A DNA stretch of 64,000 bases from Terriglobia bacterium. Lineage in GTDB: Bacteria; Acidobacteriota; Terriglobia; 20CM-2-55-15. Below are positions 21,987 to 48,472 of the stretch, piece by piece. Both the position numbers and the translations under genes were made by a program. Every line of letters starts with the position of its first letter. Position 1 is the first letter of the stretch. The notes below the pieces were generated by a model that ran no database searches, had not been told where the DNA came from, and saw nothing but the letters and a program-made list of their open reading frames with translations. The DNA lies in assembly GCA_963664115.2 (NCBI GenBank), contig CAXWPJ010000012.1, forward strand, positions 128,001-192,000. Direction: 5' to 3'.

Positions 21987-22027
21987 ATTCTCAGTGTCCG
22001 ACAATGTCGTTAACAGGCGTTGAGAAT
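21987..22027 (+). repeat. dif-like palindromic site, copy 1 (5-bp spacer variant)
   Basis: ATTCTCA-GTGTCCGACAA-TGTCG-TTAACAGGCGT-TGAGAAT. Confidence 0.7.
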
Positions 22028-22102
22028 TTAATAGCGCCTAACTCACTCCTCTAGTATCTTTTACCGGGTTTTTCTCGGTTCTTTCAGCGACACACTATAA
22101 CG

Positions 22103-22220
22103 ATGGAATCTGGCACCAAACTGGGCCGCTACTAACTCCTGAGCCTCCTTGGTAAGGGTGAAATGGGTGAATTGTGGCGTGCTCGGGACACCAAGCTCGG
22201 GCGTAAAGTTGCCATCGAAG
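22103..22220 (+). pseudogene. Ser/Thr protein kinase 5' stub
   Basis: MESGTKLGRY*LLSLLGKGEMGELWRARDTKLGRKVAIE: subdomain I-II with an internal stop. Confidence 0.85.
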
Positions 22221-22397
22221 GTAAGCGTCCAAGCTAAACCGTGTAGCGCGGCAGTCAAGAAGGCGTCATTCTTGGCGGATGGAAGCGAATCGGAAGAAGC
22301 GGCCCCAGAAGGTCGAAGCAGGAACGGCAGCGGATCGTCGAGGAGTCGCTACAAAGCGGGAACATCGGTGGCCGTCGTGGCCCGGGCTCATGCGTAA
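22221..22397 (+). mobile_element. IS66-family left-end remnant
   Basis: Starts with GTAAGCGTCC (IS66-type IR); GTSVAVVARAH resembles the IS66 TnpA HTH. Confidence 0.55.
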
Positions 22398-22449
22398 GCT
22401 TCCCCATCTGAGAGGCATGTCATAAGTGGAGCTTTCTGGCAGTTGAGGT

Positions 22450-22512
22450 TCACCCGACGTTGGATGGGTCGCTTTTGCATCCGATCGTGCAGAAGGCCTT
22501 GAGGTCTATGTA
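22450..22512 (+). pseudogene. PD40/TolB-like repeat fragment of the kinase gene
   Basis: Translates SPDVGWVAFASDRAEGLEVYV. Confidence 0.55.
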
Positions 22513-22548
22513 AAATTAGATTCGATGAATTGAAGAGTGAACGAATCT

Positions 22549-24168
22549 ATGGCCAAAAAAGAACGAGTTTGTGTGATTGGAGCGGGCCTGTCGGGCCTCA
22601 TTGCACTGAAGGAATTGCTTAAAAAAGGACATGACGTCACTTGCTATGAAAAGGAACTTCGCGAAGGAGGAGTCTTTAACTTTCCAACTGGTGTAGCTTA
22701 CGACACAATGCGTCTTACCGTCTCCCAGCACTTCATGTGCTTCACTGGGATGCCTGCGCCACCGCAGGAAAAGCGAGAGCTCTGGACACGAAGACGGTAC
22801 GCCCAGTATTTGCAGTCCTTCGCAGAAAGATTCGACCTTTTTAGCTACATTCAATTTAGCACCGAAGTAAAGGCGATCGAACTGTGTCAGGGAGGCCAAG
22901 TTCGGGTTACTTGTCGTCATAGCACCGAGAGTTACGACCGAAAGTTTGACGCAGTCGCGATTTGTCAGGGTGCGTTTCGCGCAGACGCCCCGCGAATGCC
23001 AAACATCGATGGTCTGGATAACTTTCCAGGAAGAGTGGTTCACAGCGGAACTTACAACGGCCCGGAGTCCTTTAAGGGTATGCGCGTATTGTGCGTAGGA
23101 ATGGGCGAAACGGCCGCGGACATTACTCTGCACATTTCTGAAGTAGCTGCGAGCTGCACATTGAGTATGCGGACCTTTCCCGAAATAATAAAAAGATACC
23201 GGGGTCCTAGCCAACGCACCACCGACGTCGACTCTACGCGACTCTTTCACTGGATGTCGCCGGAACAGCGAAACGATTTCTACGCCTTCAAACGGAAGTT
23301 TAGGGATACGAGGAAGCTTAGCGATCACGATCGGTTGGTTTACGAATGGAATCGAAAATCAGGTGGACGTCGCTCCCTCCAAAAGAACGACGATTTCGTA
23401 GGCAACGTCATTAATGGACGAATTCAGGTGCTTGCTCCGTCGGAGCTTAAACGTATTGAAGGCAATACGGTGATCTTTGACGATCATTCAACATTGGAAG
23501 TGGACGCAATCGTATTCAGCACAGGATACGAGGAGAGCTCCATTCCCAAAAATTGGATCAAGGACGTCGAGATCTCTGATGTTCGTCAGCTATACAAGCA
23601 TGCATTCCATATAGACCTGGGGAGGCAGGTTGCTTTTTTTGGTTGGGCACGACCTCGGCAGGGAGGGGTTCCTGTAATCTCTGAATTGTTAGCCAGGTAT
23701 TTCGCACTACTTTGCAGCGGTGAACGAGAGTTGCCTGCGAAAAGTGAAATGAAACGTGTAATTGCTGAAGATTTTGCGCGCGAGGAGGAGTGGTTCGCCA
23801 ATTCAAAATCTACACGTACGCTAGTTCACTACACACGCTATTTAGATGATCTTGCCGAACTGATTGGATGTCTTCCCCATCTGGAAGATTATCTGAATGA
23901 TCCAGAGCTGCTCACACACCTGATGTGTTCATCAAACATTGGAATGAGCTATCGGTTACAGGGCCCAGACGCCTTCCCCGAGATACCCAGAGAGGCTTGC
24001 GTGTCGGCGCCCATCGCTGATCCATATGAAGCTATCGATAAGTTTTTGGACTACTCTCTTAGACAGAGACTGAATCTTGACCTGGCAAACCGGGTCGCTG
24101 AGATCATTCGCACATATCTGACCACACACACGACGGACATGCCTTCGACGGAAACTTGGGGAAGCTGA
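22549..24168 (+). CDS. Flavin-containing monooxygenase (FMO-like)
   Basis: GAGLSG FAD motif, FPGRVVHSGTY (FMO signature), GMGETA NADPH motif, STGY; visibly more AT-rich than flanks. Confidence 0.88.
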   Translation: MAKKERVCVIGAGLSGLIALKELLKKGHDVTCYEKELREGGVFNFPTGVAYDTMRLTVSQHFMCFTGMPAPPQEKRELWTRRRYAQYLQSFAERFDLFSYIQFSTEVKAIELCQGGQVRVTCRHSTESYDRKFDAVAICQGAFRADAPRMPNIDGLDNFPGRVVHSGTYNGPESFKGMRVLCVGMGETAADITLHISEVAASCTLSMRTFPEIIKRYRGPSQRTTDVDSTRLFHWMSPEQRNDFYAFKRKFRDTRKLSDHDRLVYEWNRKSGGRRSLQKNDDFVGNVINGRIQVLAPSELKRIEGNTVIFDDHSTLEVDAIVFSTGYEESSIPKNWIKDVEISDVRQLYKHAFHIDLGRQVAFFGWARPRQGGVPVISELLARYFALLCSGERELPAKSEMKRVIAEDFAREEEWFANSKSTRTLVHYTRYLDDLAELIGCLPHLEDYLNDPELLTHLMCSSNIGMSYRLQGPDAFPEIPREACVSAPIADPYEAIDKFLDYSLRQRLNLDLANRVAEIIRTYLTTHTTDMPSTETWGS

Positions 24169-24283
24169 GACTGGCCGGTGCCGTGATTTTCGAGGTCAAG
24201 TCCTGAGAAATCATCTTCTCGGACTGTACGTCGTCAGAATAATTCGGACAAAAAGACCATTTAGCTAAGAGACGGTTTTGAAG

Positions 24284-25308
24284 TTATACCACTCCAATCC
24301 TAAGGTTCTCGATTTTGCGTCGAGCCAGCGTTTTTCTTTTGATCTGGTCACGACGTGCAAGGATCTGCTGATCCCTCCCGAAGAACACGTCAGCCGGTGT
24401 CACGTTGTTCAGAGATTCGTGATACCGATGGTGGTTGTAGTGTTCGACCCATTGCGCGATCGCCTGCTCAAGTTCCCACGGATAATAGTAGTGTTCCAAC
24501 TTGACCACGTTCTTCATCGAACGGTGATAGCGTTCGATCTTGCCCTGTGTCATCGGGTGATAGGGCGCACCCCGGGTGTGTTCCATACCACGACGTTGTA
24601 AATAGTCTTTGAGTTCGTGCGATACGTAGCAGGGGCCGTTGTCGCTCAACAATCGCGGTCGGTGCCGGACTTGTACTTGTCCGACATCTGTCGCCTGTAG
24701 TGCAACGTCCAGCGTGTCCTGAACGTCAGATGCGGCCATGGTTTGAAAGAGCTTCCAGGCGATGATGTAGCGAGAGTAATCGTCCAGCACGGTCGACAGG
24801 TAGTACCAACCCCAACCGACGACCCTGAAGTAAGTGAAATCAGTTTGCCAGAGTTCGTTCACACGCCGGGTTGGCTGCTGGAAGTGATCGCTGGCCGTCA
24901 TCACGATGTATGCGGGACTGGTGATCAGGTCGCATCTCTTCAGAATCCGATACACGCTGGATTCGGAGATGAAGTAGTCCTGGGTGTCGGTGATCTGCCA
25001 GGCCAGTTCCCGCGGTGAGGCTTCCGGGTGGTTCAACGCGGTTTCGACCACCTGTTCCCGCACCGGTCCCGGAATCCGGTTCCAGCAGAAGCCGGGGCCG
25101 GAATGCCGATCTAACAAGCCGGCTGCGCCACGCTCTTTGTATCGTCGATACCAACCGTAGAACGTGCTGCGGGGGACGCCCAGCTCCCGGAGGGTCGCTG
25201 TCACCGACAACTCCGAGTCTTCCACCACTCGGATCGTCTCCAGCTTCTCAGATCCCGATTGCCTCATATATCGATGCTCTCGGAGTCCGTTACGTTCAAC
25301 GTTTTTTT
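24284..25308 (-). CDS. Transposase OrfB (rve/DDE)
   Basis: WQTDFTY, LDDYSR, SDNG, QGKIERYH motifs; start set at the frameshift site. Confidence 0.88.
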
Positions 25309-25629
25309 CAGAAAACGATTCTTTAGCAGTATTTCGGCCACGACCTGCTTCAACTGATCGTTTTCCTGCCGCAACTCGGTGACTTCGCTCGATGTCGCTT
25401 CCCGCTTCGTGTCCCCAGCCAGCCGTTTCTTCCCCGCCTCCAGGAAGTCCTTGCTCCACCGGTAATACAGATTTGACGGAATCCCTTCGCGTCGGCACAG
25501 TTCTGCGATGCTCTCTTCGCCTCGCAACCCTTCCAACACGATCCGCACTTTCTCCTCAGACGAGTACTTCTTGCGCGTCTTTCGACGAATCTCTCGTACC
25601 CGATTCTCTGCCGACACTTTCTCACTCAT
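25264..25629 (-). CDS. Transposase OrfA (HTH)
   Basis: RKKYSSEEKVRIVLEGLRGEESIAELCRREGI HTH plus leucine zipper. Confidence 0.88.
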   Translation of the reverse strand: MSEKVSAENRVREIRRKTRKKYSSEEKVRIVLEGLRGEESIAELCRREGIPSNLYYRWSKDFLEAGKKRLAGDTKREATSSEVTELRQENDQLKQVVAEILLKNRFLKKTLNVTDSESIDI

Positions 25630-25819
25630 TCGATCCTCCTTCAGATCGTTCTGATTAGAAAAGTGTCTCTTAGTTTTTTAGGGTATTTCGTACGAAATGC
25701 TCTGACGGGCTACACTTCTCGGACCTTGAGAATTGATCCCACCACTTTCTGATAAGCCGAGTAACCTTCGATTGGGGCATATGGACGGTTTGCCGACTAT
25801 ACGGCAAGTGTAAGCTCGA

Positions 25820-25854
25820 CTGATGTGCCAGATGGCTTCTGAGGACTTGAGAAT
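25820..25854 (+). repeat. dif-like site, degenerate left arm
   Basis: ...GATGGC-TTCTGAGGACT-TGAGAAT. Confidence 0.5.
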
Positions 25855-26029: not shown

Positions 26030-26113
26030 CATGCAATCCGGCACTCAACTCGGCCACTACACGATCCGTTCTGCCCTCGGTAATGGTGGGATGGGCCAGG
26101 TGTATCGGGCTCC
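26030..26113 (+). pseudogene. Ser/Thr protein kinase 5' stub
   Basis: MQSGTQLGHYTIRSALGNGGMGQVYRAP. Confidence 0.85.
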
Positions 26114-26206
26114 TGAGTCATTATTTTCGATTGACGGTAACTTGGCTCCCTCTTAATATTGAGCAAGCATTTCAAATCGTTTGGGCGGAGCCTGAAGTAG
26201 CCCTTT

Positions 26207-26308
26207 GCGGATAAGCGGTTCAAACAGGGTCCGACACCTATTGCAGCGCTGTCGATGTCGCCGTATGGGCGTTATGTCAACCCACGCGCGGCCGAAGGCC
26301 GTCGCGCG
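26207..26308 (+). repeat. Left copy of ~100-bp inverted repeat containing two 11-6-11 sites
   Basis: Reverse complement matches 28426-28527; includes ATGTCGCCGTA-TGGGCG-TTATGTCAACC. Confidence 0.85.
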
Positions 26309-26654: not shown

Positions 26655-28355
26655 ATGTCTCAAGACCTTCGCGCTGAGCTTTCAACGTCGTTAGCCGCAT
26701 CGGTCTTTCTTGCCTCGACATTGACCGTTTTTGGTCCGTATCACTCCTATGTAGCGAACTATACGGAATTGCCGGTACTCCTGAGGCACATCGTGCCGTA
26801 CCTTGCCGCACTATTTGGGCTCGTTGTCGTGGTGGTGTTGTCCGCTTTGTTTATCACGATCAAGCGCTCATGGCACCCTCGATTCGTCACCTTTGTATTT
26901 GCTCTGGCCCTGTTGATGTGGCTTCAAGGAAACATTTTTGTTTGGGATTACGGCGTCCTCAATGAAACCAACTTAAATTGGGAAAGATTCCGGATCATTG
27001 GCCTTGCCGAACTTGCCGCCTGGTATCTCGTGGCCAGGACGGCGTTCGTGTCGCTGGTTACGAGACAGAAGCTTATACGTGATCTCAGCATCGCCCTGAT
27101 CGTGGTTCAAAGCGTGGTGGTTTTGGCGGTTCAAATCCAGGGCGCACCGGATCCATATTGGCTCCGGACTGAGCTTGATACGGACCATGAATCAGCTTTC
27201 AGATATTCGCCGGATCAAAATGTGGTTCTCGTGGTTCTCGACGGCTTCCCATCCTTTGTATTTCAGCGCATTGTTGAAGAAGACCCAAGTTTCGGTGAAA
27301 TCTTTAATGGTTTTACCTACTTTCGGAACGCCGTCTCCGGCTATCCGTTTACGATGGGATCGGTTCCAAATATATTGACCGGACAGTTCTTTGATAACTC
27401 CCAACCGTACCCGGACTTCGTCCGTGCCGCTTATGTCAATGACTCCCTCCCTTCAACGTTATCCGAACACGGGTACCAGGCCGACGCGTTCGAATTTCAG
27501 CTCACGACCGTTTTCAATCCTGTGTTCTCGAACAGCGTTCCAAGGCAGTTTTCTTCTACTCGTCGCGTCGAAAGTGTTGATCTTCTGCTCAGGATCACGG
27601 CGTTCCGGTCCCTTCCACATTATTTGAAGAGCATGATTCCGATATTCGATTTGCAGAATCCGATGGGGTTGAGTGAGACTGAGGCGCCGCTCGACCTGAT
27701 TAATTCTGTTGTCGACCGACTGTACGTGGATGGGCCGGGACCCACCTTTAAGTTCTATCACCTCCTGATTCCCCACGAACCATTCAGCCTTAACGAAGAT
27801 CTTGAGCTTGAGTCATTAGAGAACGATACTCTCGGCTTCGTCAGACACTCGACTGCAGCACTCAGGCTGATGGAACGTTTGCTGGATGTCCTGCAGAACT
27901 CTGGTATCTATGACAACACGTTGTTGTTGATTGTGGGGGACCACGGCTACCCAACAGAACTGGGTCCGCCGCTTGATTCTCTGGAGCCCGCCATCGGTGA
28001 TTTGAATCCTGCGTTTTTTCGGGCGCTGCCTTTGGTTCTGGCAAAACCTTTAGGGTCCACCGGCCCGCTCAAAGTGTCGGACGCACCAGTGCACCTTATG
28101 GACATTCCCAGGACGGTGCTTACAGCAGTTGGAATTGAGAACGACGCTCCAGGGTTATCGATGTTTCAGTCTGACGTAGTAGACGGTCGAGTCCGCCGGT
28201 TTCTCCTGCACGACTGGGAACCGGGGACAACTGGAAGGCACCGCGAATGGGAGTCACGGCTTTATATGCCCCCACTCAGGGAGTTTTTCGTTGACGGGTT
28301 CAGCTGGTCGGGTGCTGCCTGGAGGAGTTCGGGGTCGACGTTTGAGCGTGATTGA
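26655..28355 (+). CDS. Membrane-anchored sulfatase/alkaline-phosphatase superfamily protein (LTA synthase / phosphoglycerol transferase-like)
   Basis: About 5 N-terminal TM segments, VLVVLDG, Thr in GYPFT, PHEP, YDNTLLLIVGDHG. Confidence 0.8.
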   Translation: MSQDLRAELSTSLAASVFLASTLTVFGPYHSYVANYTELPVLLRHIVPYLAALFGLVVVVVLSALFITIKRSWHPRFVTFVFALALLMWLQGNIFVWDYGVLNETNLNWERFRIIGLAELAAWYLVARTAFVSLVTRQKLIRDLSIALIVVQSVVVLAVQIQGAPDPYWLRTELDTDHESAFRYSPDQNVVLVVLDGFPSFVFQRIVEEDPSFGEIFNGFTYFRNAVSGYPFTMGSVPNILTGQFFDNSQPYPDFVRAAYVNDSLPSTLSEHGYQADAFEFQLTTVFNPVFSNSVPRQFSSTRRVESVDLLLRITAFRSLPHYLKSMIPIFDLQNPMGLSETEAPLDLINSVVDRLYVDGPGPTFKFYHLLIPHEPFSLNEDLELESLENDTLGFVRHSTAALRLMERLLDVLQNSGIYDNTLLLIVGDHGYPTELGPPLDSLEPAIGDLNPAFFRALPLVLAKPLGSTGPLKVSDAPVHLMDIPRTVLTAVGIENDAPGLSMFQSDVVDGRVRRFLLHDWEPGTTGRHREWESRLYMPPLREFFVDGFSWSGAAWRSSGSTFERD

Positions 28356-28425: not shown

Positions 28426-28527
28426 CGCGCGACGGCCTGCGGCCGCGCGCAGGTTGACATAACACCCATACGGCGACCATGCCCGTGCTGCAATAGATCT
28501 CAGACACTGCTTAAACCGCTTATCCGC
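28426..28527 (-). repeat. Right copy of ~100-bp inverted repeat
   Basis: GGTTGACATAA-CACCCA-TACGGCGACCA and GACACTGCTTA-AACCGC-TTATCCGCCAC. Confidence 0.85.
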
Positions 28528-28729: not shown

Positions 28730-28877
28730 ATGGGTTTTCAATCCATGGATTGGAGGCTGAATCGGGGAGACGCAGTGATGGTGGGGGGTGGTTGTAGCGG
28801 AAGAATGGGTTTTCAATCCATGGATTGGAGGCTGAATCGGGGAGACGCAGTGATGGTGGGGGGTGGTTGTAGCGGAA
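28730..28877. repeat. Tandem duplication, 75-bp period
   Basis: ATGGGTTTTCAATCC...GTAGCGGAA starts at 28730 and 28805. Confidence 0.92.
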
Positions 28878-29016: not shown

Positions 29017-30201
29017 CTACGCACTATCCTGAATTGGAACCTCCTTTGATTCGAGAGCGGCGAGCTGTGCCGCGGTTAATCGCTCGACCAGACGCATCGG
29101 TCCCCGGCAGATCGGACACGGTGCCGGTGGGGTAGCACCCGCCTCGGACTCCGGCTCGGTGATGGACTCCTGACCTAAGAGGTGCCGACAGAGTTCCAGC
29201 ATCGTCTTGCGTTTCCGATTTGCCATCCATCCGTAGTACCGGATGCGGGGAAAGCCTTTCGGTAAGACATGCAGGAGGAATCGACGGAGGAACTCTTCGG
29301 GTTGGAGTGTCATTGTTCGTGGACGGCCATTGTGGCGATAGTCCTTCCAGCGGAATGTAACGCCGGATTGGTTGACATCGAGGATGCGATGATTCGAGAT
29401 GGCCACCCGATGGGTATAGCGGGCCAGGTACTGAAGGACGTGTTGGGGTCCGCCGAATGGTTCTTTGGCGTACACCACCCAGTTCCGATCCTTCAGATCG
29501 TCGAGGAACCGCTCGAAGGTGGATTCGGTGGCCAGTTCCAGACACTCCCCATGGAAAACGAGCGTCTTGTTTCCGAAGGCTTCGGCTAAACCGTCGAGAA
29601 ACTTTTCTCTGAAAACGTAGCTGAGCTTCTGGACCGGGAGGAAGAAGTCGGTCCGGGAGGAGTGGATCCACCGGTCGTGATCCGGGGACAGTCCGCCACC
29701 GGGAACCACACAGTGGATATGGGGATGGCGTTGCAGGGTTTGTCCCCAGGTATGCAGGATGCTGAGGAATCCGATCTCGCCGCCCAGATACCTGGGGTTT
29801 CGGGCCACTTCGATCAGCGCCGCCGCACTGGTTCGGAACAGAAGCGCATAGAGCACCTTCTTGTTCTGCCAGATCAATGGGATCAACTGATGGGGCAGGC
29901 TGAAGACCAGATGGAAGTATCCGATCGGTAGCAGTTCCTGTTGCCGTTTCTCGACCCAGGTGTTCCGCGCATTGGTCTGGCACTTCGGGCAGTGGCGGTT
30001 CCGGCACGAGTGGTAGACCAGCGTTTGGTGGCCACAGTGGTCGCATCGTTTCCGGTTCCCGCCCAGTGCGGCGGTCCGGCAATGGGTAATCGCGTTGAGG
30101 ACCTTGACCTGGGGCCAGGCCAGCGCTTTCAAATACCGTTGTCGGAATCGGTCTCCGACGATGCGAATCACGTCAGCCACCTCAAAGGGTGGCCGGCTCA
30201 C
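29017..30201 (-). CDS. IS91-family (Y2 HUH) transposase
   Basis: Zn-binding SCRNRHCPKCQ, HTWG, HPHIH (HUH), YLARY. Confidence 0.92.
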   Translation of the reverse strand: MSRPPFEVADVIRIVGDRFRQRYLKALAWPQVKVLNAITHCRTAALGGNRKRCDHCGHQTLVYHSCRNRHCPKCQTNARNTWVEKRQQELLPIGYFHLVFSLPHQLIPLIWQNKKVLYALLFRTSAAALIEVARNPRYLGGEIGFLSILHTWGQTLQRHPHIHCVVPGGGLSPDHDRWIHSSRTDFFLPVQKLSYVFREKFLDGLAEAFGNKTLVFHGECLELATESTFERFLDDLKDRNWVVYAKEPFGGPQHVLQYLARYTHRVAISNHRILDVNQSGVTFRWKDYRHNGRPRTMTLQPEEFLRRFLLHVLPKGFPRIRYYGWMANRKRKTMLELCRHLLGQESITEPESEAGATPPAPCPICRGPMRLVERLTAAQLAALESKEVPIQDSA

Positions 30202-31079
30202 TTCTTTGGATCCTTAACCACAGGTGAAAGCTTCAACTGATCCAGAGGATTGCGCGCGGTTCGAAGATGGCGCCGGGACAGTTGCAGGTAGAGCGTGGTA
30301 TCGCTGAGCCGACTGTGTCCCATCAAGAGCTGGATCGTGCGCAAGTCGGTCCCGGACTCTAGCAGGTGGGTCGCGAAGCTGTGCCGTAGCGTGTGCGGAC
30401 CGATCCTCTGGGTCAGACCCGCACGCTGGGCGGCCCCATGAACGGCATGCCAGACCACCTTGTCCGAGATCGGAGCATCCGTGCCCCGGTGTCCTGCACT
30501 GCTGTGAAACAGATAGACCTCGGGCTTTTTCAATAACCAGTACCCCCGTAACGCTTCAAGCAGATTGCGACTCAACGGGACATCCCGGTCCCGACGCCCT
30601 TTCCCGTCGCGGATATGCACCAGCATCCGTTCACTGTCGATGTCGGCCACCTTCAACACGGCGGCTTCGGCCCGTCGCATCCCGGTCCCGTAGAGCACCA
30701 TCAGGATGGCCCGGTGCATCGGACTCAATGCGGCTTGGATCAACCGGCGGACTTCAGACGGACCCAGGATCGTGGGTAGTTTCCGCGCACTCTTGGGCAT
30801 GGGCAGATCATCCAGTTCCAGATCCGCACGTCGCAGCAGCACCTTCTTGTAAAGGAATCGTATCGCCGAGGTCCGCATCCCGACCGTACTCGCCGCCAGC
30901 TTCTTTTCGGTCAGTAAGTACAGCTGAAAACGCCGTACCTCCTCGGCTCCCATCAAGGCCGGAGACTTGCCGAAGTAATTCGCGAATTGTTCGACTGCCA
31001 GAATGTAGCCACGACTCGTGGCCGGGGAATAGTTCCGTCGCTGGAGTTCCTCCAGCATCCGTTCTCGTAGTTGGGTCAT
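30198..31079 (-). CDS. Tyrosine recombinase/integrase
   Basis: YGTGMR, GKGRRDR, HTLRHSFATHLLE, LMGH, TTLY. Confidence 0.92.
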   Translation of the reverse strand: MTQLRERMLEELQRRNYSPATSRGYILAVEQFANYFGKSPALMGAEEVRRFQLYLLTEKKLAASTVGMRTSAIRFLYKKVLLRRADLELDDLPMPKSARKLPTILGPSEVRRLIQAALSPMHRAILMVLYGTGMRRAEAAVLKVADIDSERMLVHIRDGKGRRDRDVPLSRNLLEALRGYWLLKKPEVYLFHSSAGHRGTDAPISDKVVWHAVHGAAQRAGLTQRIGPHTLRHSFATHLLESGTDLRTIQLLMGHSRLSDTTLYLQLSRRHLRTARNPLDQLKLSPVVKDPKK

Positions 31080-33927: not shown

Positions 33928-33932
33928 CAAAA

Positions 33933-34030: not shown

Positions 34031-34085
34031 CCTGGAAATCCTGATTCGGACAAGGGCGGTTTGTCCGCGTCTTTCCATTCCAGTG

Positions 34086-39268: not shown

Positions 39269-39556
39269 GTGAAGAAATTTGTGCTGCTCCATTACGGATT
39301 CGAGAAGCCCACCCCAGAGATCATGAAGGGATGGGAAACCTGGTTCGAGTCAATCGCCGACAGGACGGTTGATAACGGTGGTTTCAGCGGCGGGCGAGAG
39401 ATCTCCGCCTCTGGGACAAAGGACCTCCCATGGGGAATGGAGTCCATCACTGGCTACACGATTATCCAAGCCGAGAGCCTTGACGAGGCAGAGAAGATCG
39501 CTCAAGACAATCCCTATATCGCGAGCATCCGAGTCTACGAGGTCAGGGGGATGTAG
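39269..39556 (+). CDS. YciI/DGPF-like small protein
   Basis: ITGYTIIQAESLDEAEKIAQDNP...IRVYE, AAGGAG RBS. Confidence 0.75.
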   Translation: MKKFVLLHYGFEKPTPEIMKGWETWFESIADRTVDNGGFSGGREISASGTKDLPWGMESITGYTIIQAESLDEAEKIAQDNPYIASIRVYEVRGM

Positions 39557-39789
39557 CGTGCCTGACTCACAAGGAGGCACCAACCCACTGGCGGGATTCT
39601 CAACGTCCGAGAAGATGATCTATGAAAGGGGATGTCAAGAGAAACAGCTCCCCGATGGCCGGCCAGACGGACACTTTTGTCGTGACAGCCAGCCCCTCTA
39701 CCGTTATGTGAAGCCCTGGTTCCGGCAATCCGCAGCGAAATCGTACATCTTTAAGACGGTCGATTCAGAAACTGAACAGCATATGGGAC

Positions 39790-39985
39790 GGCATGTGCCG
39801 ACCATGGATCTATCTGAGCCTCGAAGGCTATCGCTGTTTCAGGTCGTGCGAGGGGGGATAGAGATTTAAAAGTGTCCTCTGGACGTATCCAGGGACCACA
39901 TCTTGTGCAGATCCTCACCCTCGATCCTCAGTTGTTCCGACTCCGTCTAACGACTCAGTACGGCTCTACCGGTCACGGATCGAAA
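39790..39985 (-). ncRNA. Putative bridge/seek RNA of the IS1111-type element
   Basis: Two closed stem-loop units whose internal loops match the target (GATTTAA, CATCTTGT) and the donor junction (GATCTAT, ATCGC); ends approximate. Confidence 0.6.
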
Positions 39986-39989
39986 CGGC

Positions 39990-41054
39990 TTATGTTGTCA
40001 TCCAGCTCAGTTTCTTTGGATCGAACGATTCTCCTTTCTTCCAAAGCGTCAGCACCAGTGCGGCGATCTTACGGGCCAGAGTGACCCGCGCCATTTCCTC
40101 CCGCATCCCACGCATCTGGAGACTCTCCAGATAAATCCGATACGGCTCGCTTTGTTTTCCCGATGCCGCGGCTGAGAAGAACACCGACTTCAATCGCCGG
40201 TTGCAGTTCGCATTCAATCCGCGTGTGGCCACCGGTTTCCTCCGTCGCACCACACGTCCACTCTGCATCTCATACTCCGCGCTCATGTGGGTCACCACAC
40301 CCAGGCCACTGTAGCTCCAGAACTGCGGTGTCGTGCGGAATCGGTACGGCGTGTCCACGATGGCGACGATCTGTGCCGCCCGAACCGGTCCCAGTTGTGG
40401 AATGGTCTCGAGCAGTTTCACCGCCTCATGGTGCCGGCCCTCCACTCGCACCGCTTTTCTGGATTGTTTCCGCAGCAACTGGACCTGGTCCAGTTCCGCA
40501 TACAACCATCGGGCGCGCTGCCTCATCCCCGGCTCGGTCAGCTTCTCCAACCACTGTTCGCGCTGACTCGGCCGATAGACTCCGTCCTTCGGTGTCGGGA
40601 TCCCCCGTCCCCGGTATATCGCTTTGATCCGCGACATCACCCGTTGCGTGTCCAACTGGAACGTGTCATAGGCCTGCACCAGTTGCTTCAATTCTCGCGT
40701 CGCTTCATGGCCGTGATACACCGAGCGCAACAGTCCCACCCGCAACAGCTCGGCCAGCTTCCGCGCATCCGGCTTATCCCCCTTCGACCCTTCTTGCATC
40801 CACTTGTTCTGTCGCGGATCGCACACCACCACCTCGCTCACCCACGGCCGGATCACTTCCGATAACCAGCCCGCTTGCGTGGTCTCCTCCAACCCCACGT
40901 GCATCGGCCCACTCAATCCCTCCAGCAGCCGTGTGATACTCCCCGCCTCGGTTTCCACGATCGTTTCAAACACCAGTTTGCCGCTCCCGTCTCTCACCGC
41001 AACCACCGTCGTTGCCTGGTGCACATCCATACCCATATACTTGTCTTGTTTCAT
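39990..41054 (-). CDS. IS110-family DEDD recombinase/transposase
   Basis: YMGMDVH, GLEET, KGDKPDARKLA, TIPQLGP, YSGL, catalytic Ser candidate in HMSA. Confidence 0.9.
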   Translation of the reverse strand: MKQDKYMGMDVHQATTVVAVRDGSGKLVFETIVETEAGSITRLLEGLSGPMHVGLEETTQAGWLSEVIRPWVSEVVVCDPRQNKWMQEGSKGDKPDARKLAELLRVGLLRSVYHGHEATRELKQLVQAYDTFQLDTQRVMSRIKAIYRGRGIPTPKDGVYRPSQREQWLEKLTEPGMRQRARWLYAELDQVQLLRKQSRKAVRVEGRHHEAVKLLETIPQLGPVRAAQIVAIVDTPYRFRTTPQFWSYSGLGVVTHMSAEYEMQSGRVVRRRKPVATRGLNANCNRRLKSVFFSAAASGKQSEPYRIYLESLQMRGMREEMARVTLARKIAALVLTLWKKGESFDPKKLSWMTT

Positions 41055-41183
41055 CTCGAACGCTCCTTTTCTGGGATCAACGCTGTATACGTTGATCAGG
41101 TTGTTGAGTGAGTCTTCTCTCAACAACCCCCAGTCTAGGGGCGTCCTTTCATACTGCGATTTAACAGGACTTGACCTCGTAAA

Positions 41184-41297
41184 TCAGGGCACCGGCACCC
41201 GTTCTTTCAGTTCTTCAAACCAGTTGAGGACGATGTTGATTCTTGGGCGCTCGGTTTCTTCCAAGTCGGCCCGCTACTCGGGAGTTGGCACGACGAT
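41184..41297 (-). pseudogene. Kinase 3' stub
   Basis: ...PE*RADLEETERPRINIVLNWFEELKERVPVP*. Confidence 0.8.
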
Positions 41298-41471: not shown

Positions 41472-41954
41472 ATGCGCGGAGCAATGCTGTTTGCGGCCGG
41501 ACTCTTCGTTGGGTTGGCCGTAAGTGTGGGGATGGCGCAAAACGCCAACAGTAATGTCGTGATGATGAATCACGTGGGCATCAACGTGCCGGACATCCCG
41601 GATGCGATGACATACTACACCGAGACAATGGGCTACCGGGAAGCGTTCCGTCTCAACGACGACAACGGGCAGCCGAGGCTGGTCTACATGCACATCAGCG
41701 AAAACACGTTCCTTGAGCTCGGGCAGGCGAACGCGCAACGGCCTGCAGGTTTCAGCCATTATGGGCTGCACGTCGAGAACGTGGCAGACGCCGTCGCACG
41801 GTTCAGAAGGGACGGCGCAACTGTCAGTGATACCCGCACCAGCGATACCAAAGCGATCCTCGCCAACATCACTGATCCGTACATGGGCCGCATCGAATTG
41901 GCCGAACTCCCTCCGGAGTCCCTGCATTACAAGGCCATTCAGAGCTGGAATTGA
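41472..41954 (+). CDS. VOC/glyoxalase family secreted protein
   Basis: NHVGINV, FLEL, SHYGLHV, DP..GRIEL. Confidence 0.85.
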   Translation: MRGAMLFAAGLFVGLAVSVGMAQNANSNVVMMNHVGINVPDIPDAMTYYTETMGYREAFRLNDDNGQPRLVYMHISENTFLELGQANAQRPAGFSHYGLHVENVADAVARFRRDGATVSDTRTSDTKAILANITDPYMGRIELAELPPESLHYKAIQSWN

Positions 41955-41968
41955 GAAGGAGCATAGAC

Positions 41969-43081
41969 ATGAAAGTTTCAGGTTTCGTGAGGTTCTCGTC
42001 GATGGTGGTGATCGCTGCCGTCGGGATTGCCCTGCTGGCAACGAGTGTTCAAACACAGCAGCGGGCAGGCACGGTTGAGACGGACAGAGTTCAACCCGTC
42101 AACAGCGGCGCCAATCCTTATCGCGTCTTCCGGGACTGGGCACAGCTCAATTTAGAGGCGAGACCGTGGGGCGGCTCCAACGGCGTCGCCATCGACCCCG
42201 ATGGCCGGTCCGTGTGGGCCGTCGACCGATGCTCACCCGGGACGACTCCGGGCTGTGTCGACAGCCCAGGGAACCCGGTCCACCATTTCGATGAGTCTGG
42301 AAATGAGATCCTAAGCTTTGGCAGCGGGATGTTCGTCTGGCCGCACGGCATCCATGTCGATCGAGACGGAAATGTGTGGGTTACCGATGCACGAGCCGAG
42401 AGCAACAAGGGAAGCGTCGTGGTCAAGTTCAGTCCCGAAGGCAGAGTCCTCATGACGCTTGGGACGCCGGGTGTGAGCGGAAACCCTCCCGAAGCTCTGA
42501 CTGACCCGACCAGCGTCGTGACCGACCCGGGAAATGGTGACGTGTACGTGGCGGAGAGCCATACGAACGTAACCGATCCCAATCTGGTCGGCCGCATCTC
42601 CGTCTTCGACAGAGACGGGAACTTCCTCAGAGTGATCGGCAAGACCGGAACGGGGCCGGGAGAGTTCCGGACGCCGCATGCGCTCGCGTTCGATTCCCAG
42701 GGCCGGCTCATCGTCGCCGATCGCCACAACCATCGCATCCAGATCCTGACGAAGGACGGTAGGTTCATCCGTGAATACGCCGACTTCGGGCGCGTCAGCG
42801 GGCTGGCCATCGACAGCAACGACGTCATTTACGCGGCCGACTCCGAGTCGAACGAAAGGGTTCACCCAGGCTGGAGGAGGGGAATCCGGATCGGCAGCCT
42901 CCGAGACGGGGAGGTGACCATGTTCATTCCGGCACACCCGACGGATTCTCCGGACGGTGCGATGGGCGAAGGCATCGCGATCGACCCCGAGGGCAATATC
43001 TACACGGCGGAAGCACGATTGAGCGACACGCCGGAAGCACGAGTGAGGGGCGTGACGAAGTACGTCAAGAACGAGAATTGA
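41969..43081 (+). CDS. NHL-repeat (PAL-like) secreted protein
   Basis: PHGIHVDRDGNVWVTD, GPGEFRTPHALAFDSQGRLIVADR. Confidence 0.85.
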   Translation: MKVSGFVRFSSMVVIAAVGIALLATSVQTQQRAGTVETDRVQPVNSGANPYRVFRDWAQLNLEARPWGGSNGVAIDPDGRSVWAVDRCSPGTTPGCVDSPGNPVHHFDESGNEILSFGSGMFVWPHGIHVDRDGNVWVTDARAESNKGSVVVKFSPEGRVLMTLGTPGVSGNPPEALTDPTSVVTDPGNGDVYVAESHTNVTDPNLVGRISVFDRDGNFLRVIGKTGTGPGEFRTPHALAFDSQGRLIVADRHNHRIQILTKDGRFIREYADFGRVSGLAIDSNDVIYAADSESNERVHPGWRRGIRIGSLRDGEVTMFIPAHPTDSPDGAMGEGIAIDPEGNIYTAEARLSDTPEARVRGVTKYVKNEN

Positions 43082-43344
43082 AGCGCGTCAATCATCGCGC
43101 TTCGCTGATCTGAACCGGAGAAGCCCCGCTTCGATCTGCCTGCACAAGGAGTTGCGGTCAATCAGAAGGTCCAGTCCCTGAGATACCGCGGACACGAAAA
43201 AGTGGAATGCCCTAACATGGAGCCCTTCAGGCGCGATCCACTTTGGAGCATAGGCGACTATACGTCCGTGTGGATTGCCTCATCTTCGAATCTGGATACT
43301 TGAGAGTAGTTTAGTAGGCTGTGGGTAGCGAGACTTGATGATCG

Positions 43345-43443
43345 CTACGGGACCGGCACCCGTTCCTTCAGTTCTTCAAACCAGTTCAGGACGATGTTGA
43401 TTTGGGGTCATGCGACCTCGCCGCTATCGGCCTGGTCGGCGGG
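43345..43443 (-). pseudogene. Kinase 3' stub
   Basis: PADQADSGEVA*PQINIVLNWFEELKERVPVP*. Confidence 0.8.
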
Positions 43444-43890: not shown

Positions 43891-44760
43891 CTAGCTTCCA
43901 CTGCCATCCGTTGTGCTGCCACCACCAAGGTCACTCACAAAGGACTGGAGCATGGTGGTGAACTCCATGGGGAATATGAACTTGGTGGCGGCACCTTCTC
44001 CGAGTCGCTTCAGCGTCTCAAAGTATTGCAGGCTCATAGTTCGGGCGTCTGCGGTCCGGGCAACCGTGTTGATCTGAGTGAGGGCGTTGCTGAACCCTTC
44101 CGCGTTGAGAATAGCGGCCTGGCGAGTCCCCTCAGCACGGAGCATGGCGGCCTGCCGCTCACCCTCAGCTTTAAGGATGGCCGCCTGCTTTTCCCCCTCG
44201 GCTCGGTTTATTTGGGCCTGGCGTTGTCCTTCCGACTCTGTGATATCGGCCGTCTTGATGGCCTCCGCCGACTTCTCCCTCTCCATGGCGTTCTTCACCC
44301 CGTCGGGTGGGTCGATCTCGTTGATTGCGGCCCCGCGGACCTTGACCCCCCAGCGGCCCGTATTTTCGTCCAGCGCAATCTGGAGCTGACTTTGTATCTG
44401 CTCCCGTTCGCTTAGCGCCGCGGCCAGAGTTATATTGCCAATGATGGACCTGAGCTCTGCCACGGCCAGGTTCCGCACCGCCAGGCGGTGGTTCGCCACC
44501 TCGAGGACCGATTTCTCCGCTTGATCCGGTAGGACGCGGTAATAGAGTACAAAGTCCATGTCCACAACCACGTTGTCCTTGGTGATGTACTGCTGCGTTG
44601 GGACTCGCTCCGGCACCTCCCGGGTATCTACGACCCTACCGGAATGGAAGAAAGGTATGAGGAAATGAAACCCGGCGCCCTTGAGACTCCCCGTGTACTT
44701 TCCCAAGGAAAACACCACCATCTTCTCGTACTGTTTGACGATCACTATGCCTGTTGCCAT
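43891..44760 (-). CDS. SPFH/stomatin (band 7) protein
   Basis: ITKDNV, RWGVKV, EIDPP, AEG-repeat coiled coil. Confidence 0.9.
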   Translation of the reverse strand: MATGIVIVKQYEKMVVFSLGKYTGSLKGAGFHFLIPFFHSGRVVDTREVPERVPTQQYITKDNVVVDMDFVLYYRVLPDQAEKSVLEVANHRLAVRNLAVAELRSIIGNITLAAALSEREQIQSQLQIALDENTGRWGVKVRGAAINEIDPPDGVKNAMEREKSAEAIKTADITESEGQRQAQINRAEGEKQAAILKAEGERQAAMLRAEGTRQAAILNAEGFSNALTQINTVARTADARTMSLQYFETLKRLGEGAATKFIFPMEFTTMLQSFVSDLGGGSTTDGSGS

Positions 44761-44855
44761 GGTAGCCTCCTGAATGTCTTGTGCACTGGTAACCTAGTCA
44801 CTCCACTAGTCTTATAGTTACGCCGTACGCCTCTCCATACGGGTTCAACCCGAGA

Positions 44856-46235
44856 CTAGTGAGCTGATTCCAGAGGTTGATCACTCTGCTCTAGCCGGAT
44901 CACGGTGAGAATGATGCCGTTCACCTTCACCACCTCTACCTTTTCTCCAGAGCCTATCTGGTCGCTGCCCTGGGCCACTGCGGTCCAAAGTTGGTTTTCC
45001 AAGCGCACCGTACCCCGGGGTGCAAGATCAGTGGCAACCTCCGCCATTTGGCCCACCAAGCCAGCCACACCTGGATCGAGCGGCCCTCTTCGCGACCGTA
45101 CGATGGTGGTGATCACCCATCCTCCACCACCACTCAGCACCAGCGCCGTGGACACTAGGAACCACGGGCTCACACCTATACGCGGCATTGTGGGTGATGG
45201 CGCACCCGTATGGAAGAAAAGGAAAACCCCTCCCAAGATGAAGCTAACGATGGCCCCAACACCCAGGATACCAAAGCCCGCCACGTAGACCTCCAGCGCC
45301 GCTAGGACCACTGCCATGAGGATGAGCACCACACCCGCCCAGTTGACCGGCAGGTTCCCCAGGGTGACGTAGGAGAGAATCAAGAGGATGAGTCCAGTTA
45401 CTCCCGGCACGATCAAACCTGGATTCAGTAACTCCAAGAAAATGCCCAGACTGCCGAGAGACAGGAGCAAATAGGAAACGTTGGGATCGGAGAGGAAGCG
45501 CAGGAATCGCTCGACCAGGCTCATCTCCATGGTCTGCACCGCCACCCCTTGCGTTTCCAGTACCAGGCGTGGGCCACCAGGGGGCCGTACCGTGGCCTCC
45601 CGGCCGTGGAGCTGGGCCAGGAGGTCATCCAGATCACCAGCCAGAAAATCCACCATGCCGGACTCCACCGCCTCTTCGCCGGTGAAAGACAGTGCCTGAA
45701 GCACGGTGGCCTCCAGCTTCTCCTGATTCCGACCCCGTAGCTCGGCGATGGTCCTCATCTCGGCCGCGGCGTCGTTGGTGACCTTGGACCTGAGGGTCTC
45801 TGGAAGCTCCTCACCGTCACCGCTAACCGGGCTGGCAGCACCGACGTTGGTCCCTGGCGCCATCACAGCGAAAGTGGCGGCAGCAGTGATGAAGGTACCC
45901 GCCGAGGCAGCCCTCGCCCCACGAGGTGCCACGTACACCACCGACGGCAGCTCTGCGTTGAGCAAGTGTTGGGTAATCTTCCGCGTAGAGTCCAGAAGAC
46001 CACCAGGGGTATCCAAGTGAACTATGATCAGGCTGGCACCCTCGGCCTCGGCCCGCTCCACACCCCGGGCAATGAACCCCTCAGTAACGGGGCTGATGAT
46101 GCCATCCACTTCCAGGAGTAGGACGTGGCGCTGCTGCGCGTGGCCAAGATTCAACAATCCTCCGGCCATGGCCACAGCCGACAGCAACCCCACCAGCAGG
46201 TGAGGCTTACCCCTGATCCTTGCTCCACTCAGCAT
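44856..46235 (-). CDS. Long NfeD membrane-bound serine protease (ClpP-class)
   Basis: LDTPGG, AASAG, GAASP, TM block, C-terminal OB fold; paired with SPFH. Confidence 0.9.
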   Translation of the reverse strand: MLSGARIRGKPHLLVGLLSAVAMAGGLLNLGHAQQRHVLLLEVDGIISPVTEGFIARGVERAEAEGASLIIVHLDTPGGLLDSTRKITQHLLNAELPSVVYVAPRGARAASAGTFITAAATFAVMAPGTNVGAASPVSGDGEELPETLRSKVTNDAAAEMRTIAELRGRNQEKLEATVLQALSFTGEEAVESGMVDFLAGDLDDLLAQLHGREATVRPPGGPRLVLETQGVAVQTMEMSLVERFLRFLSDPNVSYLLLSLGSLGIFLELLNPGLIVPGVTGLILLILSYVTLGNLPVNWAGVVLILMAVVLAALEVYVAGFGILGVGAIVSFILGGVFLFFHTGAPSPTMPRIGVSPWFLVSTALVLSGGGGWVITTIVRSRRGPLDPGVAGLVGQMAEVATDLAPRGTVRLENQLWTAVAQGSDQIGSGEKVEVVKVNGIILTVIRLEQSDQPLESAH

Positions 46236-46371: not shown

Positions 46372-46452
46372 TGCGCGCCACACTTCACCCATTCCACCCT
46401 TACCTAAAAGCGTTGAGATCTCGTAATGACCGAGTTTGGTGCCAGATTCCAT
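46372..46452 (-). pseudogene. Ser/Thr kinase 5' stub
   Basis: MESGTKLGHYEISTLLGKGGMGEVWRA. Confidence 0.88.
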
Positions 46453-46527
46453 GTTCAAAGTGTGTCGCTGAAAAAACCGAGTAAATCTCGGTAAAAGATA
46501 CTAGAGGAGTGAGTTAGGCGCTATCAA

Positions 46528-46569
46528 ATTCTCAAGTCCCTGCAAATGACCTTGGCGGACAGTCAGATA
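46528..46569 (-). repeat. dif-like palindromic site (11-6-11)
   Basis: Reverse complement reads CTGTCCGCCAA-GGTCAT-TTGCAGGGACT-TGAGAAT. Confidence 0.7.
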
Positions 46570-46885
46570 GCCGAGTCTTTCATCCAAATCCGTAAGGATC
46601 TCAATGGAACACAACTGGACCTGGCAGGAGTTGACTGTTCAAAACGAAGCAAACGAAGGTGACGAAGGGAGAGATCTGAGAGAATGAACTAGGAAAGGTG
46701 CAGAGGAAGAAATCAGTGGTCATCAGTCAGGAATTATCAGTCCGAAGGTGAGAAATCGTGTCGGCCGGATTTCTCTAAACCCATAACTATTAACTCTTAA
46801 CATTCCTTACCGCACCTGTTCTTTTAAGATCACAAGTGTCCCTGCCGCTGCAGGACCGCAACCCGTGCGGAACGGAAGTTCACGA

Positions 46886-48133
46886 ATGAGCGCCAAACGT
46901 GTTGTCATTGTCGGTGGTGGAGTGATTGGGACCGCCTGCGCTCATTACCTCAAGAATGCCGGCTTCGACATTACGATTATCGACAGCGGAAGCATCGGCG
47001 GCGGCTGTTCCCATGGCAATTGCGGATACGTCAGCCCCAGCCAAGTCCTTCCACTGACCGAGCCCGCTGCAGTCGGTAAAGCATTCAGGTCGCTTTTTAA
47101 AAAGAACGCACCGCTACGCATCAAACCCCGCTTCGATCCGCAGTTGTGGAGTTGGCTCATAAATTTCGCTCGACGCTGCAATACGCGCGATATGCTGCAA
47201 GCGGCCGAGGCACGTCACGCATTGCTGGCTTCCTCAAGAGAGCTTTACACCGAATTGTTTGAGACAGAAGATGTTCCATGCGAGTGGGAAGAACGCGGCC
47301 TATATTTAGTGTTCAAGACAGCCGCCGCGTTCGAGAAATATGCTGAAACAGACAGGTTGATTCGCGACAACTTCGGCATCGGGGCGACACGTTTCGGTGC
47401 GAGCGAAGTAGTGAAGCGTGAACCTGCCTTGTTGGATGATATCTCGGGCGCGTGGTACTACGAGGGCGACGCGCACCTACGTCCGGACCGGCTGTTGTCG
47501 TCCTGGCGAAAACTGCTTGAGTCGCGCGGGGTGGCGATCATCGAACAGTGTAAGTTCACACATTTCGTCCAGAGCGGTGACCAAGCCGTCGCAATCTCAA
47601 CATCAATGGATAAGCTGGAAGCTGATTGCTTCGTTGTCGCCACCGGTGCCTGGACGCCCCAGTTGAATTTTGAAATCGGCTGCCGGATTCCGGTTCAGCC
47701 TGGCAAAGGCTATTCCATCACGATGCCTCGCCCCGTGCTGTGTCCCGGGACTCCGCTCATTTTTTCTGAAGACAAAGTAGCTGTGACTCCGATGCAATCT
47801 GGATATCGGCTGGGTTCCACGATCGAGTTTGCAGGCTACGATACAACACTCAACCCGACGCGACTCGAGATGCTCAAAGAGTCCGCTAGACACTACCTCC
47901 GCGAACCGTACTCCGAGCCTGTGGAAGAAGAGTGGTACGGTTGGCGACCGATGACCTATGACGGCGTTCCCTTTATCGACCGCAGTCCACGCTTCTCCAA
48001 CGTCTTAATCGCCACCGGCCACAACATGCTCGGCCTCAGCATGGCCACTGCAACGGGCAAGCTGATCGCGGAATGGCTCAGCGACGAAACGCCTCACATT
48101 GATCCGAAGCCATATCGAATTCAGCGGATTTGA
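46886..48133 (+). CDS. D-amino acid dehydrogenase-like FAD oxidoreductase
   Basis: GGGVIG, CSHGNCG, PGKGYS, GWRPMT.DG.P, ATGHNMLG. Confidence 0.88.
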   Translation: MSAKRVVIVGGGVIGTACAHYLKNAGFDITIIDSGSIGGGCSHGNCGYVSPSQVLPLTEPAAVGKAFRSLFKKNAPLRIKPRFDPQLWSWLINFARRCNTRDMLQAAEARHALLASSRELYTELFETEDVPCEWEERGLYLVFKTAAAFEKYAETDRLIRDNFGIGATRFGASEVVKREPALLDDISGAWYYEGDAHLRPDRLLSSWRKLLESRGVAIIEQCKFTHFVQSGDQAVAISTSMDKLEADCFVVATGAWTPQLNFEIGCRIPVQPGKGYSITMPRPVLCPGTPLIFSEDKVAVTPMQSGYRLGSTIEFAGYDTTLNPTRLEMLKESARHYLREPYSEPVEEEWYGWRPMTYDGVPFIDRSPRFSNVLIATGHNMLGLSMATATGKLIAEWLSDETPHIDPKPYRIQRI

Positions 48134-48444
48134 GTTCGGTGTTCCGCACACTCCAGACGGTACTGTCAACTTGGGCTCGCTGAAGTTGTTACAGGTCGTT
48201 CAGTCAGAACTTCGGCGTGACGTTCCGTCTTCATTACCAATGAACTACGTCCGTTAGATCAGGTGCTGCGGCGATGAAACAAAGCAATGAAGCTGGCACC
48301 CGCAAACGTGACAGTTGCCCCGCATAACCTCACCACTCCACCAACTCCTTCTCCGTAAGCTCCTGGAAGCACCTCGGACACTTCGCAGCCGCTGACAGGA
48401 GGCCACGCCCAATTCTTTGAAGTTTTCAGGAATTACAGATGTCA

Positions 48445-48472
48445 ACTTCCGACAAGATGATTTATCAGACTA
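48445..48472 (+). repeat. dif-like palindromic site (11-6-11)
   Basis: ACTTCCGACAA-GATGAT-TTATCAGACTA. Confidence 0.75.

Follow-up and report, generated by a model that had tools for sequence, protein, structure and literature searches.

How does a stretch of bacterial chromosome come to hold the beginnings and the ends of several protein kinase genes and no complete kinase? The question is raised by a 64,000-nucleotide stretch (the window) of a Terriglobia bacterium (GTDB lineage 20CM-2-55-15; assembly GCA_963664115.2, contig CAXWPJ010000012.1, positions 128,001 to 192,000), which is C12:128001-192000 of the source genome, G000 (4.9 Mb in 12 contigs, 97% complete). An initial annotation, made from the letters alone, saw there an array of hollowed-out Ser/Thr kinase genes flanked by inverted dif-like sites, with unrelated genes captured between them by a site-specific recombinase. 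On balance, we think that the window is one of 29 such arrays in this genome, that 28-bp Xer-like sites mark the joints between their modules, and that the host recombinases XerC and XerD are the likely agents that swap the modules.

The sites were located with a position weight matrix (PWM) built on the arms only, where a score of at least 21 defined a site and a triplet-shuffled genome gave none even at 17 or above. G000 contains 183 sites of the dif-like form, in which two 11-bp arms enclose a conserved 6-bp spacer (11-6-11): 147 belong to class A (ATCATC-type), 28 to class B (ACGAC(A/C)-type), and 8 to neither, and the exact hexamer ATCATC, present in 131 of the 183, is also dominant in the relatives G002 and G003. 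With half sites included there are 269 copies, versus 1 in a shuffled 1.29-Mb contig, and most of them fall into 29 arrays of at least three sites each, together 554 kb or 11% of the genome. Adjacent class-A sites are direct repeats in 87 of 91 pairs, so that the inverted flanking sites first taken as the rule turn out to be a minority arrangement. Class B is the inverted partner, opposing the nearest class-A site in 23 of the 24 cases with an A site within 12 kb, and the two classes are frequently paired back to back at a distance of 58 or 148 bp; doublets account for a minority of the sites. The arrays are not enriched at tRNA genes (8 of 29, 8.4 expected), site polarity is mixed on either side of the chromosomal dif (GC skew and signals of FtsK-orienting polar sequences, KOPS, are weak), and viral contigs contain no exact site match. 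Long near-identical array duplications occur at contig ends (C9 end and C5 start; C11 start and C6; C2 start and C2:162-167 kb), and these may be assembly overlaps that slightly inflate the site counts.

The association with kinase ends extends well beyond the window and is not due to chance. At thresholds that yielded no sites, heads, or tails in shuffled genomes, G000 has 69 kinase heads and 137 kinase tails. A site centre lies within 80 bp of 89 of the tails (background 0.5%), always co-oriented and just downstream, and at exactly 26 bp in 64 of them; 55 of the heads have a site within 220 bp upstream (background 1%), inverted in 28 (mostly at 93-110 bp) and direct in 27 (mostly at 94 or 121 bp). 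In this genus, class-B sites stand inverted about 96 bp before kinase starts, and both B-kinase-A and A-kinase-A cassettes exist. Intact site-kinase-site cassettes, which the initial annotation had envisaged as the ancestral unit, are thus found at full length elsewhere in the genome: five head-tail pairs span a whole gene, four as intact open reading frames (ORFs; 877-902 aa) and one with an internal stop, and the single intact kinase that was scanned has Pkinase and PD40 domains. Unrelated paralogues align only over their first 650 bp (about 75%) and last 55 bp (85-92%), and one kinase occurs at two loci (93.7% identity) behind different upstream sites. About half of the sites touch no kinase end (136 of 269 do). 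Among 329 ORFs in 20 array stretches, 197 are single-copy genes near a kinase end, of which 133 are co-oriented with it, and the 145 cargo ORFs that were scanned include dehydrogenases, hydrolases, transporters, propeller proteins, and kinase fragments, many ORFs having no NCBIfam match. One array holds a ribosomal protein S1-like gene (L181:3969-5411).

Do modules move at these sites? We compared G000 with 884 kb of site-rich stretches from G001-G003, chosen around sites. Once 35 of 54 prefiltered site pairs had been dropped (extension below 300 bp), all 19 cross-species pairs with a shared unique flank shared it on one side only. For 111 shared segments of at least 400 bp and 90% identity, most of them single-copy, a site in one or the other genome is no more than 30 bp away from 31 of 211 ends, the background being 1.9%. 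The 57 segments inside G000 arrays have a median identity of 96%, compared with 84-90% at the G002 xer loci; they contain no internal site (0 of 57, with 21.9 expected and a minimum of 10 in 1000 placements), and 22 of their 114 ends coincide with a site, where random placement gave a mean of 2.5 and a maximum of 9. Apparent skips in public contigs, such as 33924-39596, have sides shorter than 30 bases and can be put down to further copies of the site. For two cassettes, both boundaries coincide with sites. In G002, the window cassette 38360-39617 is found again (97%) among other neighbours, is bounded at both spacers, and carries IS30-type ends in both G002 spacers; in a natural sample, the site connects a variant of this cassette to a different flank. 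Modules in relatives are thus re-joined at the sites, as had been predicted, and we regard exchange of modules at the sites as very probable.

An alternative is that RecA recombines the repeated kinase ends and palindromes, the palindrome itself being a protein-binding element. Inspection of 23 aligned junctions by eye speaks to this directly: about 13 share only the site, a repeat of some 40 bp, whereas 7 have tails on both sides, as homology-driven exchange would predict, and 3 are confounded by IS30-type elements. In its favour, identity between paralogous ends is 75-92%, tandem kinases and hollow units without the site occur in sister genera, and homology-driven shuffling has precedents in tandem paralogue clusters. 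An operator, however, would need neither a fixed spacer nor two spacer classes in fixed opposite orientation, and in another family (f6) the same design occurs mostly without kinase ends. We consider this explanation unlikely.

The arrays are also real at the scale of modules, with no sign of the assembly artefact that might have produced such repeats. Four public runs from four studies carry modules in long contigs with 0-5 differences (38360-39641 has none), no contig spanning the whole array; array pieces with 0 differences come from a run labelled sponge metagenome, and one RNA run has contigs over part of the region, which is not proof of transcription.

Within the window, the stretch is composed of two convergent arrays, of plus polarity at 21.9-31.3 kb and minus polarity at 33.2-48.5 kb, heavily hit by insertion sequence (IS) elements. 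Its features, in window coordinates, are as follows.

21863-21878 (+): half of a decayed class-A site (C arm), 148 bp from the next site in back-to-back orientation.
21986-22029 (-): class-B site, spacer 1 bp short, D-like arm toward the kinase leader.
22103-22222 (+): kinase 5' stub with in-frame stop, preceded by leader 22030-22102.
22537-24168 (+): cargo flavin monooxygenase (FMO), 91% match in G001 in another context.
24175-24186 (+): kinase tail remnant (PVP and stop), 5-bp microhomology with the cargo's native flank.
24196-24224 (+): class-A site, spacer ATCATC, C arm interrupted by an IS.
24225-25715 (-): DDE (rve) IS, many copies, not site-specific; the C arm resumes at 25716-25734.
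25837-25850 (-): D-like half site upstream of the second stub.
26031-26114 (+): kinase 5' stub (initially placed at 26030).
26655-28355 (+): cargo sulfatase-domain protein between 102-nt inverted repeats (26207-26308, 28426-28527).
29017-31079 (-): IS91-family transposase and tyrosine recombinase, the latter in 6 identical genome copies.
31192-31225 (+): class-A site with a 3-bp deletion.
31329-31352 (+): kinase 5' stub cut by an IS1380-type element (31347-33203).
33226-33239 (-): D-like half site, then an IS110 end.
33259-33657 (-): NfeD-like ORF fused in frame to kinase tail ERVPVP and stop via 6-bp microhomology.
33886-33923 (-): intact class-A site; breakpoint relative to G002.
33933-33996 (-): kinase tail, INIVLNWFEELKERVPVP and stop.
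34086-35072 (-): cargo cyclase-family hydrolase, 96% in G002 at another locus.
35087-35137 (-): divergent kinase 5' stub (VALSSGTELSPYRITD).
35211-35227 (+): D-like arm of a class-B site joined to an IS91-type end.
35559-38087: cargo FGE-sulfatase (-) and GSDH (+), each 94-96% in G002 at separate loci.
38286-38378: back-to-back pair, decayed class B at 38286-38323 (+) and class A at 38341-38378 (-).
38379-39597: site-to-site cassette, hypothetical gene and YCII gene.
39598-41174 (-): one class-A site split by a site-targeting IS110, C half 39598-39617 and D half 41161-41174.
41184-41262 (-): kinase tail.
41472-43081 (+): cargo glyoxalase and NHL-repeat genes, antisense to array polarity.
43298-43415 (-): kinase tail 43345-43415 with 8-bp site remnant 43298-43305.
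43891-46235 (-): cargo SPFH and NfeD genes, 89% in G004 in another context.
46372-46452 (-): kinase 5' stub.
46532-46569 (+): decayed class-B site.
46865-48133 (+): cargo DAO-family oxidoreductase.
48440-48475 (-): class-A site, D arm decayed; last site of the array.

The initial description of this anatomy holds almost throughout. All five kinase 5' stubs are present, the one correction being a shift of a single position to 26031. Four of them (22103, 26031, and 31329 on the plus strand, 46452 on the minus strand) translate as MESGTKLG-type kinase starts; the stub at 35137 (-) has a divergent head that the head PWM missed, and we accepted it on the grounds of resemblance and of a leader with 71% similarity to that at 46483. 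The five tails are where they had been placed, each of the five stubs is preceded at about 70-180 bp by a site or half-copy, and sites follow four of the tails by 10-20 bp, the fifth retaining only its 8-bp remnant. Neither the ORF list nor Pfam searches of 23 ORFs revealed a full-length kinase in the window. Most window sites are decayed or IS-split, that at 33886-33923 being the only clean full copy, and an apparent hybrid site at 39600 is actually an IS110 end. Core genes left of the array have 75-84% identity in congeners, which lack such an array at that place. The 102-nt inverted repeats around the sulfatase-domain gene (84%) resemble sequence beside other cargo and at 33744-33766, and are possibly another non-autonomous element. 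Near window sites (25738-25815, 36466-36500, 43250-43280) there is a further motif in which a XerC-like arm accompanies a G(C/G)CGAC core; it also follows kinase tails in genera g4 and g10 and possibly represents a third class of site. A phage-type integrase remnant (51906-52965) abuts tRNA-Val (52893-52965) and is probably the right end of an older island. Exact tandem duplications occur at 28730-28877 (73 nt) and 48757-48810 (24 nt).

How the kinases lost their interiors looks like a separate matter from the sites. The annotation had read the hollowing as the replacement of the interior of a site-flanked cassette by captured genes, but the sites are not needed for it in sister genera g4 and g10: these contain tandem intact kinases together with head and tail remnants fused to cargo, nearly all of them without a site. 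In five hand-picked cases, not a survey, in which the cargo's native flank is known, cargo and kinase overlap at the junction by 5 bp (FMO), 6 bp (NfeD), 8 bp, about 9 bp, and up to 15 bp. Such joints are suggestive of microhomology-mediated deletion or illegitimate recombination, which they fit as well as they fit a true replacement; illegitimate junctions of this kind are modelled as homology-facilitated illegitimate recombination (HFIR) in PMC5361080, and shuffling units in tandem paralogues are described in PMC2568036, as far as the portions consulted of each extend. In the genomes G047, G048, and G017 (L161-L178), intact kinase-PD40 genes stand in tandem with overlapping stops and starts, with more than 50 kinase domains per genome.

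What, then, is the site? It is not the chromosomal dif, an identity suggested by near-single copies in G007 and G017 and rejected, the G017 copy following a kinase tail and canonical dif lying opposite dnaA. G000 has one canonical dif, at C2:108116-108143, where weak GC skew flips sign, which is separate from the repeat and resembles the Solibacter dif listed by Kono et al. (PMC3025954, in the part consulted). The canonical pattern has a match, in most cases a single one, in 29 of 35 family genomes; in two single-contig genomes the match is separated from dnaA by about half the chromosome. The sites have spacers different from that of dif, and their arrays are dispersed over the chromosome. 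Their C arm shows some resemblance to XerC arms: the consensus agrees with the XerC arm of the genome's own dif at 8 of 11 positions (mean 7.0) and individual copies with the Solibacter arm at a mean of 8.3 of 11, the best variants at 10 and none at all 11. The second arm agrees with the own XerD arm at a mean of 5.1 of 11, differing at five consecutive positions in nearly all copies, and reads at 7.1 of 11 as an inverted C arm.

Palindromes this abundant could also be selfish hairpins, and two further explanations depend on a folded strand. In 207 unique sites from five genome groups, observed Watson-Crick pairing equals expectation at all 11 stem positions, and common variants fold weakly (-2.7 to -7 kcal/mol); a search of 21500-49000 against Rfam at gathering thresholds gave 0 matches. 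The lack of covariation between arms indicates that it is the duplex sequence that is conserved rather than a hairpin, which argues against attC sites and repetitive extragenic palindromic (REP) elements alike. REP elements or their inverted doublets (REPINs), spread by a REP-associated tyrosine transposase (RAYT) with rearrangement as a by-product, would account for more than 100 copies, for the doublets at 58 or 148 bp, for positions just after stop codons, and for targeting by IS110, and Y1 transposases occur in five of five genomes searched. Only 1 of 10 Y1-transposase loci has a site nearby, however, and the copies keep to accessory arrays, 253 of 269 having another site at 10 kb or less, which makes this origin improbable. 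More remote still is an array of atypical attC sites of the type called clusters of attC sites lacking integrases (CALINs), served by the genome's own integrase. Polarised direct repeats after genes and the co-orientation of cargo noted above are integron-like, and at C9:714590-715759 there is a gene for what we take, from its sequence features, to be an IntI-like protein. Yet attC sites follow rules, with RYYYAAC/GTTRRRY cores and structure-based conservation, whereas here the site is shorter, the would-be G of GTT varies (G in 48%), the second class is inverted, the integrase lies about 190 kb from the nearest array, and no comparable match is listed for G003.

Which enzyme acts on a duplex site of this form? 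XerC and XerD, encoded in G000 at C9:863231-864193 and C2:150455-151351, occur in all five genus genomes. When recombinases of G000 and G003 were compared, these two alone proved to be close orthologues, with 79-85% identity, against at most 38% for the other tyrosine recombinases (6 of 7 others compared, one broken). Serine resolvases, also possible candidates, are present in all five genomes as well, and G651 has only 3 recombinase matches. A dedicated tyrosine recombinase brought by passing mobile elements, alone or with XerC, is a less probable actor: the second arm is non-canonical and conserved class-wide, some sites are fully symmetric (L214), a 316-aa acidobacterial integrase lies between two inverted class-B sites with divergent kinase stubs (C5:52189-53139, L003) and has homologues in the arrays of G587, and IS91-linked recombinases are often near sites. 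Neither candidate follows the sites, however. The C5 integrase was not found in G002, G003, or G004, only 3 of its 63 homologue loci have a site within 500 bp, and the IS91-linked recombinase was not found in G003. The proposal that recombinases of the island itself move the modules is not supported, since the window-island integrases are absent from site-rich genomes. Of the named loci related to one integrase of the window, all 55 are acidobacterial, which fits its placement in Acidobacteriota. For IS91-family elements that carry a tyrosine recombinase, the end is frequently located at or next to a site, both in this genus and in family f6 (window 29017-31079 and 35225-35330; C12:567700-570250; L251, L267), and at C12:570253 such an end replaces one arm in exact 11-6-11 register.

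We therefore have host XerC and XerD as the best candidates, and we incline slightly to the view that they act on the sites; the identification as XerC/D-type sites stands to that extent, but the supposed XerD arm fails the test of a canonical arm. Several observations weigh against this view and should be read together. The second arm matches dif D arms at only 5.0-5.9 of 11 positions, yet is strongly conserved, as would fit a different protein or XerC at both arms, and none of the 164 strong sites has the T found at position 9 of the own dif C arm. With G003 at 95% completeness, a dedicated recombinase could be absent from the assembly. Among the shared segments, 92 of 114 ends lie away from G000 sites, which implies another origin for most of the visible joints; the arm alleles follow the shared flank only imperfectly, so that no crossover can be assigned to the spacer on this evidence; and no excised circle or inversion was seen, in contigs only and at joints with sides of less than 30 bases. 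Finally, the Acinetobacter xrs cassettes tested in the work excerpted from PMC13141974 and PMC11705084 did not excise, even from a directly repeated pair.

Insertion sequences also recognise the site. Three IS types, which are candidates for new target-specific groups, insert at fixed positions within it (8 of 8, 11 of 12, and about 13 of 16 ends) and have split many copies; one is IS110 by Pfam, one was assigned by resemblance, and one is IS30-like, a family we presume from its ends. Examples are window 39620-41160, C12:332441-333880, and C2:317951-319195. The rve-type and IS1380-type elements are mostly not site-targeting. In Acinetobacter, IS1202 is described as targeting xrs (bioRxiv 2022.12.17.520857, in part).

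Taken in order, the process may have run as follows. It would start from a lineage with a large Ser/Thr kinase-PD40 family, arranged in tandem arrays, with conserved ends and unalignable interiors, as is seen; in this genus, A sites came to stand 26 bp after tails and inverted B sites about 96 bp before starts, placements that are likewise visible and that would supply the cassette boundaries. Microhomology deletions and illegitimate insertions would then have fused foreign genes to kinase ends, creating hollow cassettes, the stubs presumably persisting because they adjoin sites and offer homology. Recombination between sites of the same spacer, a pattern evident in the comparisons with the enzyme conjectural, would move cassettes between arrays and species. 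By analogy with the gonococcal genetic island (GGI) and toxin-linked cryptic (TLC) phage, the non-canonical second arm may keep FtsK-driven excision low, and this could explain why about 150 direct repeats are tolerated. The broader form of this account is tentative: that Xer sites of a second family, independent of dif, serve Acidobacteria of this class as an integron-like platform without a dedicated integrase, and are recognised by XerC on its own or together with an atypically bound partner, is a possibility we rate somewhat below even, and we hold with the same reserve that the conserved ends of a kinase family became cassette adaptors through which genes are exchanged between species over 11% of a chromosome. 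As for the first reading of the site family, its observations are confirmed and its interpretation partly supported.

The family is unevenly distributed. A one-mismatch pattern finds 140, 90, 38, 12, and 3 copies in five genomes of the genus, 0-4 in a sister genus, and 0-1 elsewhere in the family. Among 301 genomes of the class searched with two mismatches (controls 0-8), one other has 63 and several have 12-16; in these the arms are unchanged and the spacers new, and the sites again fall into two opposed classes and form back-to-back pairs. The 91 matches of G282 (L216, L217) appear to be a different palindrome, in the end of a CTAG-flanked mobile element. Only the 28-bp 11-6-11 core is conserved across families and the class, spacers and flanks changing. 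In other families of the class, sites are mostly without kinase tails; in G587 kinases lie near sites, but the arm is mostly abutted by ordinary DNA. The tie to kinases is thus not general, f6 sites mostly abutting ordinary DNA.

How do these arrays relate to known systems? Plasmid dif (pdif) modules of Acinetobacter, including a chromosomal dif module island, likewise hold accessory genes between 11-6-11 sites other than the main dif and, to the extent covered by the portions consulted of PMC13141974, PMC11705084, and PMC12907356, share unequal arms that give orientation, spacer-matched rearrangement, fused modules between direct sites, and site-targeting IS elements. Their XerD arms are canonical, their spacers varied, and their C and D sites mostly alternate, whereas here one spacer dominates in direct repeats (87:4), C modules are mostly tiny linkers, and kinase ends form the scaffold; 183 full sites compare with 22 chromosomal ones in the part of PMC12907356 consulted. 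We did not file the sites as pdif members because the canonical D arm and the alternation both fail. Integrative mobile elements exploiting Xer (IMEX) with a degenerate XerD arm, among them GGI and TLC phage, share a XerC-like arm, a divergent XerD arm, and stability toward FtsK, as summarised in the sections consulted of PMC9226527 and PMC5357621; they differ in integrating at dif and sharing its central region, the sites here having no dif spacer, being spread chromosome-wide, and not found in viral contigs. Chromosomal integrons share long polarised arrays of one- and two-gene cassettes with mixed accessory cargo, and differ in attC geometry and an adjacent intI, both lacking here, where there is no hairpin covariation and a second, inverted class exists. 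The S. aureus lpl cluster (PMC2568036) and the V. cholerae type VI secretion system (T6SS) loci shaped by HFIR (PMC5361080), so far as the parts consulted go, share a unit that runs from a 3' end through the intergenic region to the next 5' end, together with orphan gene ends and an anchor plus an illegitimate junction, but involve paralogues or immunity genes and no recombinase site, unlike the unrelated cargo and the site at the joint seen here. REP, REPIN, and bacterial interspersed mosaic elements (BIMEs; PMC3337134, in part) share abundant imperfect palindromes, some in inverted doublets, and differ in that here there is no hairpin selection, no RAYT linkage, and confinement to islands. 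A search of mostly open-access literature found no description of such arrays in Acidobacteriota.

If the account given here is true, Xer-driven modules would not be a peculiarity of Acinetobacter plasmids, but could be the main means by which a chromosome stores and trades accessory genes. It would open the questions of how a cell tolerates some 150 directly repeated Xer-like sites, what reads a conserved but non-canonical XerD arm, and how dif-type modules first capture genes, for which microhomology joints to a repeated gene end would be a possible route. The sites would also serve as a sequence marker for the extent of the flexible genome in uncultured Acidobacteriota, and would give three IS families a new target.

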